Virus record (IMG/VR): IMGVR_UViG_3300037059_000105
Coordinates: 1 to 8,067 of that record
Reading direction: 5' to 3' (one strand)
DNA length: 8,067 bases
DNA from: a virus
Shown here: in pieces, positions 1-8,067 of the stretch
Layout of the letters: every line of letters starts with the position of its first letter
How positions within the stretch are numbered: the first letter of the stretch is position 1
Made by a program: the position numbers and the translations under genes
The notes under the pieces: generated by a model
Seen by the model: the letters and a program-made list of their open reading frames with translations, nothing else
The model's database searches: none
Told to the model about the DNA's origin: nothing

Positions 1-64
<64 letters not shown>

Positions 65-70
65 AATTAG

Positions 71-108
71 GCAAAAAGCCCAATCACTCCGGTGGTTGGG
101 CTTTTTGC
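71..108. terminator. Intrinsic terminator after the first tRNA copy, bidirectional in form
   Basis: A perfect 13-bp stem pairs gcaaaaagcccaa (71-83) with ttgggctttttgc (96-108) around a 12-nt loop. The A-tract on the 5' side and T-tract (102-106) on the 3' side of the GC core fit the classic rho-independent architecture. Confidence 0.8.
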
Positions 109-152
109 CTTCTGGCCGCCAGCCCCCGTTTTGCCGCACTGCAAAATAATTC

Positions 153-181
153 TTGACTCGGGTGGAGTGGTCCTCTATTAT
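153..181 (+). promoter_or_regulatory. sigma70-type promoter for the second tRNA-fMet gene
   Basis: -35 TTGACT (153-158), a 17-nt spacer and -10 TATTAT (176-181). An A/T-rich UP-like stretch gcaaaataattc lies upstream (141-152). A GC-rich discriminator GGCG follows the -10, as in stable-RNA promoters. The mature tRNA 5' end lies 14 nt downstream. Confidence 0.7.
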
Positions 182-194
182 GGCGTTTCTCTGA

Positions 195-1820
<1,626 letters not shown>

Positions 1821-2032
1821 GGGATTCAGAGGATGGAATGATTCGGCCTTCTGCCAGCGCGTTCGCCACAATGCGTTCGGCCAGCAGCTGGATCAACTCG
1901 TCGCGGGCGGCAAGGCGCTCGGATTCGCGCATGTGATTCGGCAACATTATTTGCAGGATAGTCCAGTTGTTGGAGGGCCAAAAGCGGCCCGGTTTTAGTC
2001 GGAATGTATTACTCGAAACACCGTTTTTGGCG

Positions 2033-2076
2033 CTGGTCTGCGGGGAAAATTTGGTAACTTTTTGCCCGCAGACCAG
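2033..2076. repeat. Perfect inverted repeat CTGGTCTGCGGG-N20-CCCGCAGACCAG
   Basis: The arms at 2033-2044 and 2065-2076 are exact reverse complements. The 20-nt spacer gaaaatttggtaactttttg is AT-rich and can extend the stem (aaaa/tttt). The repeat sits 9 nt past the stop of the last operon gene and has no canonical U-tract in either direction. Confidence 0.75.
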
Positions 2077-2085
2077 GTGACAAGA

Positions 2086-2343
2086 TCAGTCAGCGCCCTT
2101 CTTGCTGACAATCGGCTGGGCCAGTTTTCCGGTGATACGGATGGGCCACATGGGTTCGTAGTCGGGGTTGATCGTGGTCATGATCCAGAAGGCCATGCCG
2201 AAGATCGCTTCAGATACCGGCATCAACCAACTCAGAGACCAGTGACGCGGATCAAGGCAAGGCCCTTCGGTGTTGATGTCGCCGATATAGACAGGGCACA
2301 GGCCGAACCAGCCCTTGTGCGTGAATGTGATGGGGGGCGTCAT
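2086..2343 (-). CDS. Small hypothetical protein, 85 aa, with one probable transmembrane segment
   Basis: ATG 2343 is preceded by GGAGGA with a 6-nt spacer and forms an ATGA overlap with the upstream gene. The hydrophobic stretch is WLMPVSEAIFGMAFWIMTTI. I do not recognise the family. Confidence 0.6.
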   Translation of the reverse strand: MTPPITFTHKGWFGLCPVYIGDINTEGPCLDPRHWSLSWLMPVSEAIFGMAFWIMTTINPDYEPMWPIRITGKLAQPIVSKKGAD

Positions 2344-2358
2344 GCGTTTTCCTCCAGC
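2338..2358. repeat. 21-nt junction repeat, copy A (cgtcatGcgttttcctccagc)
   Basis: It matches 2865-2885 at 20 of 21 positions. It spans the ATGA stop/start overlap plus the GGAGGA ribosome-binding site. Confidence 0.8.
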
Positions 2359-2870
2359 GGCTTCATGAATACGATCCAGTGGGTCAGGCCTTTCCTGCCA
2401 GTGGGGTGACCAAACAGGGGCCGCACGGGAGTCAGCTCGAGCACATCCCGAATCCGCACTTGATCCTCGGCCCACTTGAACACCAACACGCCGTCGCTGG
2501 CCAGCACGCGGAAGCACTCGGAAAACCCCTTGCGCAAGTCCTCGCGCCAGTCTTCTCCCAGCACCCCGTACTTGGCCCGCAGCCAGCTTTTCGGGCCGGC
2601 GTAGCGTAGATGCGGAGGGTCGAAAGCAACCAGCTTGAAGGCCCCGTCTGGATACGGCAGGGCCGTGAAGTCCATTAGCACGTCGGGCTCGATGCGCAGC
2701 GTCCGACCATCACACAGCGTGTGCTTCTCGCTACGGCAATCACCGAATACCGCGTCGGGGTTTTCCCGGTTGAACCACATCATTCGGCTTCCGCAGCACG
2801 GGTCCAGAATCCTGGCGGGCTTTTCATCCACCTGTTCGTTATGGACGATGGCGATGGGGTGCGTCGTCAT
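2340..2870 (-). CDS. Small SAM-dependent DNA amino-methyltransferase (N6-adenine or N4-cytosine type), 176 aa
   Basis: It has the SAM-binding motif I-like ILDPCCGS followed by the catalytic motif IV DPPH (2610-2621). The family is typical of small phage methyltransferases. GGAGGA lies 6 nt upstream of ATG 2870, and both gene ends form ATGA overlaps. Confidence 0.8.
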   Translation of the reverse strand: MTTHPIAIVHNEQVDEKPARILDPCCGSRMMWFNRENPDAVFGDCRSEKHTLCDGRTLRIEPDVLMDFTALPYPDGAFKLVAFDPPHLRYAGPKSWLRAKYGVLGEDWREDLRKGFSECFRVLASDGVLVFKWAEDQVRIRDVLELTPVRPLFGHPTGRKGLTHWIVFMKPLEENA

Positions 2871-2885
2871 ACGTTTTCCTCCAGC
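2865..2885. repeat. 21-nt junction repeat, copy B (cgtcatAcgttttcctccagc)
   Basis: It matches 2338-2358 at 20 of 21 positions. Looser similarity extends to 2851-2887 versus 2327-2360, with one codon indel. Confidence 0.8.
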
Positions 2886-3088
2886 ATTTCGCCTTGATGG
2901 TTGATCCACAGGCGGCACAGGCCGCCGGCGCGGATGGGGAACTGGTTCTCTTTGCACCAGGGCGGGATTTCCGCCACGGGGATGCTGTTGAGCAGTTCGC
3001 GGCGGCCGTCCTTGAAGTGGCGGCACGTCTTGCAGCGGGGCGTGTTGCCGTCGTATTCGACGGATTTGCGCTTGGTTTTCTGGTTCAT
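2867..3088 (-). CDS. Cys4 mini-protein, 73 aa, with a HiPIP-like cysteine pattern (putative Fe-S or metal binding)
   Basis: The pattern is C19-x2-C22 (RCKTCRHF) ... C44-x12-C57 (CKENQFPIRAGGLCRLW). The start is set at ATG 3088, 4 nt after the upstream stop. The track start 3109 would overlap the upstream gene and has no RBS. The SD is weak (GAG). Confidence 0.55.
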   Translation of the reverse strand: MNQKTKRKSVEYDGNTPRCKTCRHFKDGRRELLNSIPVAEIPPWCKENQFPIRAGGLCRLWINHQGEMLEENV

Positions 3089-3092
3089 GGCT

Positions 3093-4052
3093 TTACTCAC
3101 ACAGTCCATATTCAGAGGCGCATTCAGTGGAATTGTTTAGGTCCGTCAGCAGGCTGAATTGACGCCCGCCACGGCTTGTCCTGGCCCACTGAATGACGCT
3201 CTCGATCTTGTTGGCCTCGCACACGTGGCGGTCAGCATGGGACTCGTGCAGTCCCTTGTTGAAGAACGTCGAGAAGCCGCGCTTGCAGGCCTGGCCGACA
3301 AGCATCTCCCACCGGGACTTCTCTTCCAGGAGCTCAGGGAACCTGGCTTCGATCTGAGTTATCTCGGCCTTTCCGCAGTTGATGCAGGGCATGCAACCGA
3401 CGCGGCTCATTCCCTGCCGATAAAGTGGGTTCGGCTGGATTCCGCGCCTGGCGTGCTTTGCAAAAACGTCGTCAGCAGTCCAATCGACCAGCGGACGAAA
3501 CGCCCACATGCCGGGGTTCAGCCGCTCGATTTTTTTGGCATTGCGCCGGTTCTGGGACTCATCCCGGCGGACGCCCTGCCACGACAGCACCTGATGGCCG
3601 GCGTCAATCTGCTCAAGCTGAAACCCGACTGCCATGTTTCGCTTTAACTCCTCGGTGCAGAACTGAGCCTTACGGGACGGGAAGCGGCCCTTCCACAGGC
3701 AGAGATCAAGGAAGGGGTTTCCTGTCGGGTGCAGTACAGCCAGAGCGCGGCGCTTTGCCTTGTTGGTCCAGCGCAGCCGGCGTCCCCGCTTGTCGCGTCC
3801 AGTGCGCTGATCGGTAGCGATGAACCGGCGCTTGCTCGCGATCTCGTGCGAGAAGTCGGCCTTCAGCCGCGTGATGCTGATATCGAGGGCCTGTTCGAGG
3901 TAGGACAGGTACTCATAGACGGCCGGGTGTTCGTTGCCGGTGTCGCAGAAGATCGGCAGCAGGTGCTCTCGCGGGCAGTTCTCCAGGGCGATCAGCAGCA
4001 ACGCGGTGGAGTCCTTTCCTCCGGAGACGCTGATTACGTGTTTGATGGTCAT
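3093..4052 (-). CDS. PAPS-reductase-family PP-loop ATP pyrophosphatase-like protein, 319 aa
   Basis: The PP-loop SGGKDS lies at 4008-4025, close to the N-terminus. Other motifs are CTEELK, QGVRRDES, PLVDWT and NPLY. A cysteine cluster GCMPCINC sits at 3375-3395. AAGGTGG lies upstream of ATG 4052, which forms an ATGA overlap with the upstream gene. Confidence 0.9.
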   Translation of the reverse strand: MTIKHVISVSGGKDSTALLLIALENCPREHLLPIFCDTGNEHPAVYEYLSYLEQALDISITRLKADFSHEIASKRRFIATDQRTGRDKRGRRLRWTNKAKRRALAVLHPTGNPFLDLCLWKGRFPSRKAQFCTEELKRNMAVGFQLEQIDAGHQVLSWQGVRRDESQNRRNAKKIERLNPGMWAFRPLVDWTADDVFAKHARRGIQPNPLYRQGMSRVGCMPCINCGKAEITQIEARFPELLEEKSRWEMLVGQACKRGFSTFFNKGLHESHADRHVCEANKIESVIQWARTSRGGRQFSLLTDLNNSTECASEYGLCE

Positions 4053-4663
4053 GCCGCCACCTTTTTGAACTCGACAACCCACACCCACGGGTTGGCATCC
4101 CACGAGCCGGCGCCATTGATGGACTCCCACAGTTCGCGGTATGCCTCGGCTGCTGTTGGTTGAAGAGTGCACTTCCCGTCGTCTGGAAGATGCGTATATC
4201 CGTAGCACAGAGGCCACCCATCATCTGGACGAAAGATGTAGCGCTTGATTCCCTCTGCCAGTGCATCCGCCTCGCTGATGTCGTGCAGGCGTTCAACACG
4301 GACAGAGACGACTTCCAGTGAGATACGGCTTGCCCAGCGCGGCATGTGTATTGATGGGCGCCAGCGGTGTCCGTCGTAGGTGTGGCCAGGGTCAGCCCGA
4401 TAGTCAACGCGCCGGCATGACTCTGAATAGTCGGGGTGGTATCCCCACGTCTCACGTACCCAAAGCCGGTCCCCGGGCTGTCCGAAGCGGTTCAGCCGCA
4501 TGATCCGGCCGTCTGCCATCGCCTCTTCATCAATCTCCATGCTGTTGGTTTCACGATTCAGCCGAAGCGGGAGCGGCTTCACGATTCGCCGGGTCTGCGT
4601 CTTCTTCCCGTCAAGGATTGCCCGGACCATCGGTGCGCTGAAAAGGATGGGGCGTTCTTTCAT
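4049..4663 (-). CDS. ASCH-like (PUA-fold) phage protein, 204 aa
   Basis: The N-terminus MKERPILFSAPMVRAILDGKKTQTRR, then GDRLWVRETW, PSIHMPRWASRI, VRVERLHDISEADALAEG and NPWVWVVEF match my recollection of the widespread phage ASCH-domain family. GGGAGG lies 6 nt upstream of ATG 4663, and both gene ends form ATGA overlaps. Confidence 0.75.
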   Translation of the reverse strand: MKERPILFSAPMVRAILDGKKTQTRRIVKPLPLRLNRETNSMEIDEEAMADGRIMRLNRFGQPGDRLWVRETWGYHPDYSESCRRVDYRADPGHTYDGHRWRPSIHMPRWASRISLEVVSVRVERLHDISEADALAEGIKRYIFRPDDGWPLCYGYTHLPDDGKCTLQPTAAEAYRELWESINGAGSWDANPWVWVVEFKKVAA

Positions 4664-6465
4664 GCCACACCTCCCTGCGCCACGCTGATCGCCACGGCCA
4701 CCGGCTGCACCCAGATGGGCATGGCCGACAGGACGAAGGTTTCGCCGCTCCAAGTGAGCAGCAGGGTGGTGCCCATGACGTGGCCGATTCCTTCGGCGGC
4801 ATCCGGGGGCACGGCGTTGCCGATGCGTTCGCGCCAGTCGCTGTCCGACAGGCCTTCTAGCTCGAGGTATTCCTCGGGCTCTACCAGGCTTTGCAGGGCA
4901 GCAAGCTCAAGCGTGGTAAAGGGCCGGTGCCAGGTGCCGTCCTCGGCGACGATGATGCAGGTGCACTTCTCGTTGGCTGCAGGGATGCGGTGATCGGCGA
5001 CTGACCAAGGGCCGTTGTCGTGGCAGGCGGACGCGGAGACGGCGCCGCTTGAGCCTGCCCATGGCACTACGCCGTAGTGGCCGCCGGTAAGGTAGTGGTC
5101 GCCCTTCTCGCGGGCCATGCCGGGCCGGGGGTCAGCCACGGCGAAGGCGCCCTGTCCGGTGGTGCTGCCGCTGATCACAGTGCCGGCGGCGCCGTCGTAA
5201 GCGGTGACCATGTACTTGCCGAAGCTCGGGCCAGCCCGGCGAGGATCTGCTACGCATTGCCCCGTGCCGTGGGCGCTCGTGACGGCCATGGCTGCTTGAT
5301 CGATCCGGATGACGCGGAACTCATTGTTGTGCTTTGCGGGGCCGCCGTGGCGCGGGTCGGCCACGCTGTACTTGCCGCCGCCCGGCGCCGACTGGGCGGA
5401 CACGGCGCCCATGGGCTCGTCCATCTTCAGCACGCCGTATTGGCTGTATTCCGCGCCCTGGTAGCGCGGATCGGCAATCGAGAAGGAACCATTGGAGGGC
5501 GTCGATCTTCCGGCGACGGTGCCGGTGCTTTCGTCCCAGCGATTTACGCCCAGGTATCCGCCCCGGTACTCGGGCACGATGAGGTAATCGCGCAGTTGGC
5601 CGTCTTCGACGTGCAGGCGGTTGAGGCTGCGCCAGTCCTTACCGGCTTCGACAAATGCGAGGCGTACCCAGGTCTTCCACTGCAGCGCCGGCACGCGGTG
5701 CATCGGGCCGCCGGCAGGGTCGCCCGGCAGGGGCATGCGGTCGAGCACGGTGCCCACGGCCTGCAGGCGCTTCTGTTCGGGCTCGTAGAGGAAGGCGGGC
5801 ACCTTTTCCATGTGGCGGGCGACCATCAGGAAACGCTTGCGGCTCTGCGCCAGGCGGCCGATCTTTCCGCAATCGTGAGTGGTTTCGGCCACGGCGTAGC
5901 CGTACTGGCGGAGCAGGCTGACGATCTGGTCGAGTAGGTGCCGGCCGCGGGTCTGGATGCGGGGCACGTTCTCAAAGACGATCAGCTCGGGCGGCTCGGC
6001 CTGGAAGGCCTCGAGCATCAGCCAGATGCCGCGCAGCGTGAGGCGGTTGAGGGCCTGGTATTTGTCGGTGCGGCTCTTGTTCTCGGCCAGCAGTCCGGAG
6101 AAGCCCTTGCAGGGCGCCGACAGAAACACGATGTGGGGATACTCGCCGCCAGCAGCTGCGCGGATTTCCATCGTTCCGGCCTCGCGCCAAGAGGCGGGCG
6201 GCTCAACACCGTGGAAGGCCTTGAACTGGCTGCGGTCGAACAGATCGAGCACGGTGCCGCGGGTGCCGGTAAGGCGCTCGAAGTCACGGATGGCCGGCGC
6301 GTCGACGTCGATGCCACCGATGCAGCGGAACTTGCCGACCATGTTGCCCACGCGGGGCTGGGCCTTGTTGAAGCCCTTGGCGCCGCCGCCGAGTCCGCAG
6401 AAGAGGTGAAAGTGGCGGATTTCGCGGACGTCGTCGGGCGCCAGGGTGAAGTTATCGCGCTTCAT
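4660..6465 (-). CDS. DNA (cytosine-5) methyltransferase, 601 aa, with an expanded variable region
   Basis: The canonical motifs appear in canonical order. They are I FCGLGGG (6382-6402), IV PCKGFS (6097-6114), VI ENV (5965-5973), VIII QSRKRF, IX RPFTTLELAALQS and X GNAVPP (4804-4821). The start is taken at ATG 6465, which forms an ATGA overlap with the upstream gene, rather than at 6477. Confidence 0.93.
   Translation of the reverse strand: MKRDNFTLAPDDVREIRHFHLFCGLGGGAKGFNKAQPRVGNMVGKFRCIGGIDVDAPAIRDFERLTGTRGTVLDLFDRSQFKAFHGVEPPASWREAGTMEIRAAAGGEYPHIVFLSAPCKGFSGLLAENKSRTDKYQALNRLTLRGIWLMLEAFQAEPPELIVFENVPRIQTRGRHLLDQIVSLLRQYGYAVAETTHDCGKIGRLAQSRKRFLMVARHMEKVPAFLYEPEQKRLQAVGTVLDRMPLPGDPAGGPMHRVPALQWKTWVRLAFVEAGKDWRSLNRLHVEDGQLRDYLIVPEYRGGYLGVNRWDESTGTVAGRSTPSNGSFSIADPRYQGAEYSQYGVLKMDEPMGAVSAQSAPGGGKYSVADPRHGGPAKHNNEFRVIRIDQAAMAVTSAHGTGQCVADPRRAGPSFGKYMVTAYDGAAGTVISGSTTGQGAFAVADPRPGMAREKGDHYLTGGHYGVVPWAGSSGAVSASACHDNGPWSVADHRIPAANEKCTCIIVAEDGTWHRPFTTLELAALQSLVEPEEYLELEGLSDSDWRERIGNAVPPDAAEGIGHVMGTTLLLTWSGETFVLSAMPIWVQPVAVAISVAQGGVA
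4987..5559 (-). repeat. Five tandem degenerate ~32-aa coding repeats inside the C5 methyltransferase variable region
   Basis: R1 is 5464-5559 (GYLGVNRWDESTGTVAGRSTPSNGSFSIADPR) and R2 is 5350-5445 (SQYGVLKMDEPMGAVSAQSAPGGGKYSVADPR). R3 is 5239-5325 (NEFRVIRIDQAAMAVTSAHGTGQCVADPR) and R4 is 5125-5220 (GKYMVTAYDGAAGTVISGSTTGQGAFAVADPR). R5 is 4987-5082 (GHYGVVPWAGSSGAVSASACHDNGPWSVADHR). The repeat is clear at protein level and diverged at DNA level. Confidence 0.85.
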
Positions 6466-6806
6466 GCCACACCCCACTTCATCGGGCGCCGGGGGCTGTC
6501 CTGGCCGTGGCTGACGACTTCACCCAGGGCGGCGTAGGCCTTGAGCACGCGGATGCAGCAGGTGCTCGACAGGGCGGTGGCCTCGGCCACTTCATTGGTT
6601 GTCACGATGCGCTTGGCGCCGCGGACGAACTTGAGGATAGCGGCGGCAGCGCGGGTGCTGGTGGTGCGGTGGTGCGCGTTGATGTCGTCTTCGACGTCGG
6701 CATCGCGGGCCTTGGCGGTGTCGATCGCCCAGGCGGCGGCAGCAATGTCGGCATCGTCGCCGGTGAAGCGGCGGGCGCCGATGTTTTCGAGGTGAACGGT
6801 GATCAT
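6462..6806 (-). CDS. Small hypothetical protein, 114 aa, with a possible C-terminal winged-helix/HTH
   Basis: ATG 6806 has GGAG 8 nt upstream and lies 2 nt after the upstream stop. The segment RIVTTNEVAEATALSSTCCIRVLKAYAALGEV resembles a MarR-like recognition region. The stop overlaps the C5 methyltransferase start (ATGA). Confidence 0.6.
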   Translation of the reverse strand: MITVHLENIGARRFTGDDADIAAAAWAIDTAKARDADVEDDINAHHRTTSTRAAAAILKFVRGAKRIVTTNEVAEATALSSTCCIRVLKAYAALGEVVSHGQDSPRRPMKWGVA

Positions 6807-6808
6807 GT

Positions 6809-7033
6809 TCAGTGCTCCAGCAGTTTGAGGTGGGCGGCGTAGCCGCACACTTGGAGGTGGTAGTCGAGCAGGGCGAGGGCGTCGTGGAACTCGATGCGGG
6901 TGAGGTTTCCCCGGGCGATGTCGGCCAGCCACTTCTTGTGGCGGCCGCACTTCACCGATGCGGTTTCGAGGACGATTCCCTGGCTGCGGATGTTCAGCGC
7001 CACGCGCTGGAAATCGATGTGGATGGCGGGCAT
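6809..7033 (-). CDS. Small hypothetical protein, 74 aa, possibly an XRE-like HTH
   Basis: ATG 7033 has GAGG 8 nt upstream. The segment LNIRSQGIVLETASVKCGRHKKWLADIARGNLTRIEFHDALALLD loosely fits the XRE helix-turn-helix pattern. This is pattern recognition only. Confidence 0.5.
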   Translation of the reverse strand: MPAIHIDFQRVALNIRSQGIVLETASVKCGRHKKWLADIARGNLTRIEFHDALALLDYHLQVCGYAAHLKLLEH

Positions 7034-7043
7034 GGGTAAGGCC

Positions 7044-7517
7044 TCAATACGGGATTTCGCCTTCGGCGATGCCGCCCGGCTCGGCCGTGGGGGCGGTGAG
7101 CTGATCGAGGGCGTTCTCGCAGGCTTCCTCCGCGGTGTCGCCTCGGCCTTGGGCGAGGATCTTTCTGTCGGGGTCCTGTTCGCGGGCGTTGCTGCAGATC
7201 CACGCCATCCAGCCCGTGGTGCGGGTGTAGGCCAGTTCGAAGTAGGTGTAGGGGTTGGATTCGAGCAGCAGGGCGTGCATAGCGATGAGGGCGTCGATCG
7301 CGATGTCTTCGCGGGGCGACGGGTTCAGGGCTTCGCCCAGTTCGATCGCGTGGCGCAGATCGACGGTGGATTCCTGCAGCTCGACGAGGATATCGGCGGC
7401 CGTTTTGATCAATGGGGCGTCGCCGGCGGCGAGGGCTTGGTGGTTGTCGCCAAGCATGTTGTTCAGGGATTCGCTCGCCTCCAGCAGGCGGGCGGTGAGT
7501 TCAATAAGGGTTTTCAT
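7044..7517 (-). CDS. Acidic hypothetical protein, 157 aa
   Basis: ATG 7517 has GGAG 7 nt upstream and lies 14 nt after the HD gene stop. The sequence from MKTLIELTARLLE onward looks like a real protein. The Arg/Pro-rich upstream extension in the track ORF overlaps the HD gene in another frame. Confidence 0.65.
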   Translation of the reverse strand: MKTLIELTARLLEASESLNNMLGDNHQALAAGDAPLIKTAADILVELQESTVDLRHAIELGEALNPSPREDIAIDALIAMHALLLESNPYTYFELAYTRTTGWMAWICSNAREQDPDRKILAQGRGDTAEEACENALDQLTAPTAEPGGIAEGEIPY

Positions 7518-7531
7518 GGCGGGGCTCCGGG

Positions 7532-8067
7532 TTACAGGGAGAAGTAGGCGGTGCAGGCGTCGCAGTCGCACTGACGGCTGGGCGGGTGGCCAACGGGGGT
7601 GGTCAGGGCGTAGTACATGCAGAGGAAGTCGGCGCGGGCCTGGTTGGGCGTTTGCGGGCTGATGCGGATGGGCAGGGGCTCGATGCCGTCGAGTTGGACC
7701 CAGTGCTGGTCGGTGGCGGGCATGAGGTCGCGCTTTTCGGTGGCGAGCATGACCATGTCGGCGTGCTCGACTTCGGGGGCGAGGTTGAGCGGGACGGCGA
7801 AGTGGCCGCGGATGCGCTGGGCGATCTGGCGTTCGATGTCGCGGTAGGTGGGCACCAGCTGCTTGAGGGGCGTGGACACGTCGCCGATGTAGGCCTCGTG
7901 GGCGTCGTGCAGCAGGGCGGCCAGGGCGTGCTCGGGCGGCACGATGGTGGCGGCCATCACGCTGTGCTGGGCCACGCTGTAGAAGCTGCGGGTGTGGCCG
8001 TTGAAGCGGCACAGGTTGGACAGGGCGTGGGCAATGTCGAGGATGTCCACGTGGCAGCGGGTGGGAT
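7532..8067 (-). CDS. HD-domain metal-dependent phosphohydrolase (YfbR-like 5'-deoxynucleotidase type), 5' end probably beyond the window
   Basis: The motifs are DIAHALSNLCRFNGH, SVAQHS, LLHDAHEAYIGD (HD at 7904-7909) and ADMVMLATEKRDL. The frame stays open from GTG 8050 to the window edge (..PTRCH-VDILDIAH), and family members usually carry ~20 more N-terminal residues. The true start is therefore likely off-window. Confidence 0.8.
   Translation of the reverse strand, partial: PTRCHVDILDIAHALSNLCRFNGHTRSFYSVAQHSVMAATIVPPEHALAALLHDAHEAYIGDVSTPLKQLVPTYRDIERQIAQRIRGHFAVPLNLAPEVEHADMVMLATEKRDLMPATDQHWVQLDGIEPLPIRISPQTPNQARADFLCMYYALTTPVGHPPSRQCDCDACTAYFSL

Follow-up and report, generated by a model that had tools for sequence, protein, structure and literature searches.

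We find that a gene on an 8,067-nucleotide stretch of viral DNA (positions 1 to 8,067 of IMG/VR virus record IMGVR_UViG_3300037059_000105; the whole stretch is called the window below) encodes a cytosine-5 (C5) DNA methyltransferase that carries five paralogous units of ~32 residues (aa) in tandem between catalytic motifs VIII and IX. The units occupy exactly the position of the target-recognition domain (TRD), the catalytic motifs around them are intact, whole units have been lost, replaced and reordered among relatives of the enzyme, and the window carries the end of a prophage. We suggest, with a probability of about 0.42, that the protein is an orphan C5 methyltransferase of a temperate phage in which the units serve as alternately used miniature TRDs, which would make it a multispecific anti-restriction enzyme.

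A five-unit array within an intact catalytic core

Judged by its sequence and its structural model, the protein is a C5 DNA methyltransferase with a class I methyltransferase fold in the catalytic domain. The Pfam profile PF00145 matches aa 22-230, which hold motifs I-VIII, with E=1e-16, and its profile positions 272-322 match weakly at aa ~514-568 (motifs IX-X), which leaves ~290 residues between the two matches with no Pfam coverage. The score against TIGR00675 is 43 bits, the cutoff of that model being 100.65 bits. Motifs I, IV, VI (ENV), VIII, IX and X are all intact and stand in canonical order, and Foldseek matches the modelled core to DNMT1, MET1, M.HaeIII, M.HhaI and 3g7u with a probability of 1.00. 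DNMT1 and MET1 are the best matches to the core both by Foldseek and by PDB profiles, although the TRD of DNMT1 is one large non-repetitive domain. The reading frame is open as far as a GTG at 6477 (4660..6477, minus strand), which would give 605 aa; the ATG four codons inside it is probably the true start, as called for the close homolog P0001. Open reading frames (ORFs) on the plus strand, for example 5077-5937 and others across 4400-6550, run antisense to the gene and are most probably artefacts that stem from the high GC content; we favor the minus-strand frame because homolog conservation supports only this frame.

The array covers aa 306-497 (window 4987-5562), and its units 1-5 are separated by spacers of 6, 7, 6 and 14 residues. 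A first-pass annotation, made from the letters of the window without database searches, had placed five ~32-aa units 5-14 residues apart between motifs VIII and IX at 4987-5559, with a shared consensus and the series GTV, GAV, MAV, GTV and GAV at its center; the coordinates, the spacers, the consensus and the series all agree with the units that we find. The repeat is also statistically significant. In Smith-Waterman comparisons eight of the ten unit pairs reached z 7-17, with 0/500 shuffles as good (the weak pairs are U1-U3 and U3-U5), and a profile built from four units recovered the left-out fifth unit every time, with independent E-values (i-E) of 1e-12 to 1e-3. At the DNA level Tandem Repeats Finder (TRF) detected no tandem repeat and find_repeats only imperfect matches of 13-28 nt, and the codons for the VADPR sequence at the unit ends differ from unit to unit; the copies are therefore old and diverged, as had been proposed from the letters. 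Beyond unit 5 follows a degenerate sixth element, KCTCIIVAEDGTWHRPF, which runs straight into motif IX and is present in all members of the family described below.

The anatomy of a unit was derived from 1,311 unique units. Its scaffold is nearly fixed and reads [YLF]-x-[VI]-x2-[WFY], G-[TA]-[VI] and G-x3-[VI]-A-D-P-R, with Y/L/F in unit column 5, V/I in column 7, W/F/Y in column 10, G in column 15, T (52%) or A (38%) in column 16, V/I in column 17, G (98%) in column 26 and [VI]-A-D-P-R in columns 30-34 (95-99% each). Columns 8-14, before the [TA]-V, are hypervariable and differ even inside one unit type, and columns 18-28, after it, set the unit type. When 60 close five-unit homologs were each measured against the window protein, identity was 84% in the catalytic domain, 83% in the scaffold columns, 72% in columns 18-25, 64% in the linkers and 42% in columns 8-14; the constant part that precedes the array (aa 230-303) has a mean identity of 88% among close homologs. 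Across relatives the linkers range in length from 5 to >30 residues and show poor conservation, and the hydrophobic or aromatic scaffold positions, together with the type-specific loops, are kept in relatives that are only 33-57% identical. A Pfam-A scan of aa 290-605 at E<=10 returned only PF00145 on motifs IX-X and no model over a unit, and the NCBIfam profile showed no extension into the array. A search of the PDB with the unit profile gave no methyltransferase and only chance matches to NF-kB, and a PDB sequence search with the whole protein gave nothing.

The family and the evolution of its cassettes

The window gene is an ordinary member of a large methyltransferase family. A word-indexed search found 6,712 proteins at E<=1e-5, and among the best 120 of these, which are 56-98% identical, 9, 96, 12 and 3 proteins have 4, 5, 6 and 7 units, respectively. 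A HMMER scan of 1.84 billion representatives gave 1,302 clusters (50% identity) at E<=1e-3 and 506 at E<=1e-30; the complete cluster representatives have 0-11 units, and a further search found up to 12. Relatives are encoded in at least 546 species-representative genomes, and most of the hosts are Betaproteobacteria (Rhodocyclales, Cupriavidus, Burkholderia, Comamonadaceae) and Gammaproteobacteria (Pseudomonas, Stenotrophomonas, Marinobacter), the closest species-genome match (81% identical) coming from a metagenome-assembled genome of the Rhodocyclales. No GTDB representative genome contains an exact 36-mer taken from the window. Full-length relatives at 57-64% identity are also found in the named phages phiCTX, LKA5, H66, Dobby, Marinobacter PS3 and Achromobacter CF418P1. 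Orf41 of phiCTX (NC_003278, L006 3492-5270), which is annotated as 'hypothetical protein', has five units, gp10 of the F116-like phage LKA5 has six and the methylase of Marinobacter phage PS3 has four; the methylase of phage H66 matches at 57%. The family is furthermore found in many Pseudomonas aeruginosa genomes. The first-pass annotation had implied that such an array is rare, which we correct here: the architecture is common (at least 506 clusters, including phiCTX and many P. aeruginosa genomes), and the survey of repeat number in homologues that it had proposed reveals the array as a family trait with 0-12 units. The database names of family members are generic, and literature searches on multispecific, prophage and 5-methylcytosine (5mC) methyltransferases as well as on the phages phiCTX and F116 yielded no paper that treats the architecture or characterises a member.

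We point out that several members of 830-1200 aa (P0124, P0169, P0189 and P0315) contain an intein, at about residues 110-520 of each, with Hint_2, LAGLIDADG_3 or Intein_splicing domains, not every one of which is found in each member. The intein is positioned at or beside motif IV with the catalytic Cys (window aa ~120-123).

Clustering of 1,447 units from 248 complete proteins resolved six main unit types, in which the array of the window is ordered A-A-F-C-B. Type A comes first in 208 of the 248 proteins, type B is last in 210 of its 213 occurrences and type C is mostly penultimate, and in a one-unit family member only the terminal type was detected. The ends of the array are thus fixed in type while the middle is combinatorial: the 248 proteins show 128 unit-type orders, some of which (AAECB and AACEB, for example) arrange one set of types differently. 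Relatives that are 89-92% identical to the window protein differ from it by the clean deletion or replacement of a whole unit, bounded by VADPR; unit 3 is absent from the homolog P0004, and in P0002 a C-like unit stands in its place. Orf41 of phiCTX matches the window array unit type for unit type, except that units 3 and 4 have traded places. In these sequence comparisons the units behave as cassettes in evolution. A closed propeller-like domain was also considered and is unlikely, because the number of units ranges from 1 to 12 and a single unit can separate near-identical proteins.

The cassettes as candidate target-recognition modules

Motifs VIII and IX lie 307 aa apart in the window protein. 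M.HhaI and M.HaeIII span the same interval with 111-122 aa, and the enzymes of the Bacillus phages SPR, phi3T, rho11s and H2 with 191-284 aa. The several specificities of the Bacillus phage C5 methyltransferases have been attributed to tandem TRDs (PMC8936443, PMC12707154). M.HhaI and M.HaeIII, which have the same catalytic fold and motifs as the present enzyme, read DNA via recognition Loop 1, a conserved TL dipeptide and Loop 2 (PMC2790894), and the layout of our unit, namely a variable loop, [TA]-[VI] and a second variable loop, follows the same order; they have one copy of this arrangement, however, where the window protein has five plus a degenerate sixth. The [TA]-[VI] dipeptide recurs every ~35-46 aa across the units, and in SPR, rho11s, H2 and phi3T (compared as retrieved database records, L001-L004) mutually similar T-[LIV] cores recur every 41-47 aa.

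Multispecific C5 methyltransferases are a textbook example of modular target recognition, and the papers that we found ascribe them to Bacillus phages (PMC8936443, PMC12707154). Those of Bacillus phages (M.SPRI, M.Phi3TI, M.Rho11sI, M.H2I and M.SPBetaI) are likewise orphan enzymes of temperate phages that have one core with an enlarged VIII-IX region, paralogous cores centered on T-[LIV] at ~40-47-aa intervals and a constant last element beside motif IX. On the other hand, they have no detectable unit-to-unit sequence homology with the present family, whose units are shorter, far more regular and end in the invariant VADPR, whose copy number reaches 12, whereas the Bacillus enzymes have three or four T-[LIV] cores each, and whose hosts are GC-rich Beta- and Gammaproteobacteria. 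We suggest that the family may represent an independent and much larger lineage of tandem-TRD-like C5 methyltransferases with a distinct repeat unit, which is apparently undescribed. As a separate observation, the Bacillus multispecific enzymes show the internal repeat VY..xG[LIV][SA]xT[LI]T[TS]…G…[IV][AS]V, and their constant last element contains the string EPAFTV, which is also present in the M.HaeIII sequence that we used.

The only cross-family placements that HMMER made for a unit are on M.HaeIII and DNMT1. With a family profile, the terminal unit plus the hairpin and tail yields one continuous alignment to M.HaeIII 228-324 (E=8e-5 overall), which sets V..W….TV.AS of the unit on VRQWNEPAFTVQAS; the M.HaeIII sequence used was checked only by reproducing its PDB-match score and coordinates. 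On mouse DNMT1 a family profile puts a unit on 1516-1539, with 3.5 bits alone, which is not significant; the first residue of this segment is the last one of TRD loop I, and TRD loop II falls inside it (PMC6316889). In the first-pass annotation each unit had been taken for a TRD core by alignment to a segment found once in ordinary enzymes (YGRLxWDxPSxTIT...G...HP..R), and at the level of sequence this is a reasonable pattern match. The claim stands as far as position, dipeptide spacing and cassette evolution are concerned, but homology to TRDs is not demonstrable from the sequences.

In the mechanism that we favor, the catalytic core would be active and its variable region would have expanded into five paralogous ~33-residue cassettes, each with a three-strand-like scaffold that presents two variable loops flanking the [TA]-[VI] dipeptide. 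The cassettes would contact DNA as miniature target-recognition modules on flexible linkers, each working alone, and would take turns at the one core, which would thereby methylate several different short sequences. Methylation at several sequences would shield the phage DNA from several host restriction systems, and the gain, loss and swapping of cassettes, together with the hypervariability of the loops, would retune the repertoire. We favor this mechanism because of the cassette-wise evolution, the tolerated permutation and single-unit loss, the variable linkers, the hypervariability at the position of Loop 1 and the phage setting. A stronger version, in which each ~33-residue unit would be an autonomous mini-TRD with two loops encoding a short DNA word, and in which phages would follow the restriction repertoires of their hosts by shuffling, duplicating and mutating the cassettes, of which one enzyme may hold up to 12, we find doubtful; its most radical form would have the ordered cassettes read DNA in series and spell long composite sites.

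Several observations weigh against alternately used mini-TRDs. The alignment of the units to Bacillus TRDs, which the first-pass annotation had proposed as a check, did not bear it out: hmmsearch with the unit profile found no domain above noise in the four Bacillus phage sequences, and hhalign of the units against the Bacillus TRDs gave P=0.23 and a probability of 0.3%. M.HhaI gave no match to the unit profile, and the Pfam profile reaches no unit, even in chimeras of a unit with motif IX, which score 12-13 bits versus 15.5 bits for the native tail. Within the M.HaeIII alignment, residues 228-245 opposite the terminal unit add only ~1.7 bits, and 10/300 shuffles are as good (p≈0.03). All units keep VADPR and G and are far more alike than the Bacillus TRDs are mutually, and linkers of 6-14 residues give little slack for five modules to reach one cleft. 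The order, with A nearly always first, B nearly always last and C usually penultimate, resembles the capped ends of one repeat domain more than modules that can be interchanged freely, and the fixed end types are about as compatible with a single capped domain as with multispecificity. The literature searches, finally, found no methylation data on any family member.

The structure prediction belongs with these points. In an AlphaFold2 (AF2) run with 61 close sequences, the predicted local distance difference test (pLDDT) score was 25-30 in the array and much of the C-terminus. A second run drew on 144 diverse sequences that share ~46-98% identity with the window protein. Here pLDDT exceeded 90 over most of aa 11-260 and 521-580 but dropped to ~86 at aa 121-130 and 89 at aa 11-20; it was ~78-93 at aa 231-290, went down to 66 at aa 291-300 and was about 83-85 at aa 501-520; the array (aa 303-497) remained at 31-57, with isolated one-residue strand marks only, and the model shows no inter-unit packing. 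The low confidence may fit flexible beads on a string, or units that become ordered only on DNA, but it could equally be explained by a failure of AF2 caused by repeat misalignment, and the result decides between no models of the array.

The main alternative is that all units contribute to a single composite domain for DNA binding or target recognition, a beta-rich, open-ended repeat with N- and C-terminal caps that reads one site (which may be short or degenerate), or that they are a non-specific DNA clamp for affinity or processivity, in which case the copy number would tune binding and not the number of specificities. We consider this quite possible. It would account for the position-specific unit types, for one-unit members that keep only the terminal type, for the invariant scaffold and VADPR common to all units and for the short linkers, and copy number commonly varies in open repeat domains. 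The absence of inter-unit packing in the AF2 model is harder to reconcile with such a domain, as are the length range and poor conservation of the linkers across the family, the permutation of middle units between otherwise similar proteins and the whole-unit loss or replacement tolerated by ~90%-identical relatives. Moreover, evolution is fastest in the columns of the loop that corresponds in position to Loop 1, which suggests recognition and not packing.

It appears unlikely that the array is no DNA reader at all, but a flexible, partly disordered appendage for protein contacts, virion packaging or regulation, in which case the constant parts (aa 230-303, aa 498-520), perhaps joined by the terminal unit, would recognise the target. 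The low AF2 confidence and almost complete lack of predicted secondary structure in the array, the confidently modelled and highly conserved constant parts and the lack of demonstrable TRD homology would agree with such a role. The array is located exactly at the recognition loops, however, the marginal M.HaeIII and DNMT1 placements fall in TRD loops, and the conservation of the scaffold and of the type-specific loops at 33-57% identity argues for a folded functional unit. Serial reading, in which each cassette would contact a few bp beside the target cytosine in a zinc-finger- or TALE-like manner while order and number spell one long site, would make use of the combinatorial unit orders, of a copy number between 1 and 12, of a regular ~33-aa unit that contains a hypervariable stretch and of the fixed terminal units, but strikes us as very improbable: a long site would bring little anti-restriction benefit to a phage, the idea is without structural support, and the unit resembles the part of a TRD at the flipped base and not a flanking reader.

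Prophage setting and significance

The window is GC-rich (58-69%), and its features are collected in Table 1. The tRNA-Met gene and the 3' end of the recombinase ORF share 44 nt, and this overlap is likely the attachment site and prophage boundary. Directly downstream of the methyltransferase, the ATG of the phrog_874 gene overlaps the methyltransferase stop codon (ATGA). Its homolog in LKA5, gp08 (47% identical), lies two genes downstream of the LKA5 methylase, and in 15 of 80 genome loci a phrog_874 gene is found no more than 3 kb from the methylase. We considered the phrog_874 protein as an obligatory partner of the methyltransferase and ruled this out, because it is present in only these 15 of the 80 loci. 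The HD-domain (YfbR-like) gene, which lies upstream of the methyltransferase in the same orientation, was found near the methylase in 6 of the 80 loci. The C5 methylase, the phrog_954 gene and the PF01507 gene make three candidate DNA-modification genes in ~4 kb. The context of P0001 is a P2-like prophage, and the family members of phiCTX, LKA5 and PS3 lie in early regions. In the neighbourhoods examined, where several genes carry no annotation, we saw neither an annotated restriction enzyme nor a restriction enzyme domain.

Table 1. Features of the window, with the methyltransferase and its parts first. AdoMet, S-adenosylmethionine.
Feature	Residues (aa)	Position in window	Strand	Basis or remark
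C5 DNA methyltransferase, coding sequence		4660..6465	-	601 aa from ATG at 6465; 98%-identical P0001 called from the equivalent ATG
Motif I, FCGLGG, AdoMet binding		6385..6402	-	Inside Pfam match
Motif IV, PCKGFS, catalytic Cys123		6097..6114	-	Invariant in alignments A1 and A4
Motif VIII, QSRKR		5833..5847	-	Motif mapping
Constant N-terminal part of small domain, single copy	230-303	5569..5790	-	Highly conserved
Unit 1, type A	306-338	5464..5562	-	First-position type
Unit 2, type A	345-376	5350..5445	-	Second subtype
Unit 3, type F	384-413	5239..5328	-	Cassette deleted or replaced in 89-92%-identical relatives
Unit 4, type C	420-451	5125..5220	-	Mostly penultimate in family
Unit 5, type B	466-497	4987..5082	-	Terminal type; marginal alignment with M.HaeIII 228-245
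Degenerate sixth element, KCTCIIVAEDGTWHRPF, beta-hairpin	504-520	4918..4968	-	Predicted strands, pLDDT >80
Motif IX, RPFTTLELAALQSL		4885..4926	-	Pfam profile positions 272-322; DNMT1 and MET1 matches
Motif X, GNAV		4810..4821	-	Motif mapping; PDB-profile matches
tRNA-Met		195-271	+	Abuts recombinase, marks prophage end
Large serine recombinase, prophage integrase		228..1871	-	PF00239, PF07508, PF13408
Small second DNA methyltransferase		2340-3026	-	phrog_954
PAPS-reductase/DndC-like protein		3093-4217	-	PF01507, phrog_424
204-aa protein		4049..4663	-	phrog_874; no Pfam match, function unassigned
HD-domain deoxyribonucleoside 5'-monophosphate phosphatase-like, YfbR-like		7532-8050	-	phrog_318

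To our knowledge, there is no solved structure of several TRDs sharing one catalytic core. The family described here provides hundreds of natural cassette combinations, including near-isogenic pairs that are one unit apart. If the units form a single domain, this would be a new DNA-binding repeat fold that is missed by current structure prediction, and if they are read in series they would constitute a modular DNA-recognition code of a new kind, coupled to a base-flipping enzyme. If, on the other hand, the cassettes are independent modules, the modularity of TRDs would be directly testable in this family, and the cassettes would be parts for engineering methyltransferase specificity. In that case the family could also explain part of the restriction resistance in temperate phages of Pseudomonas, Burkholderia, Cupriavidus and Rhodocyclales.

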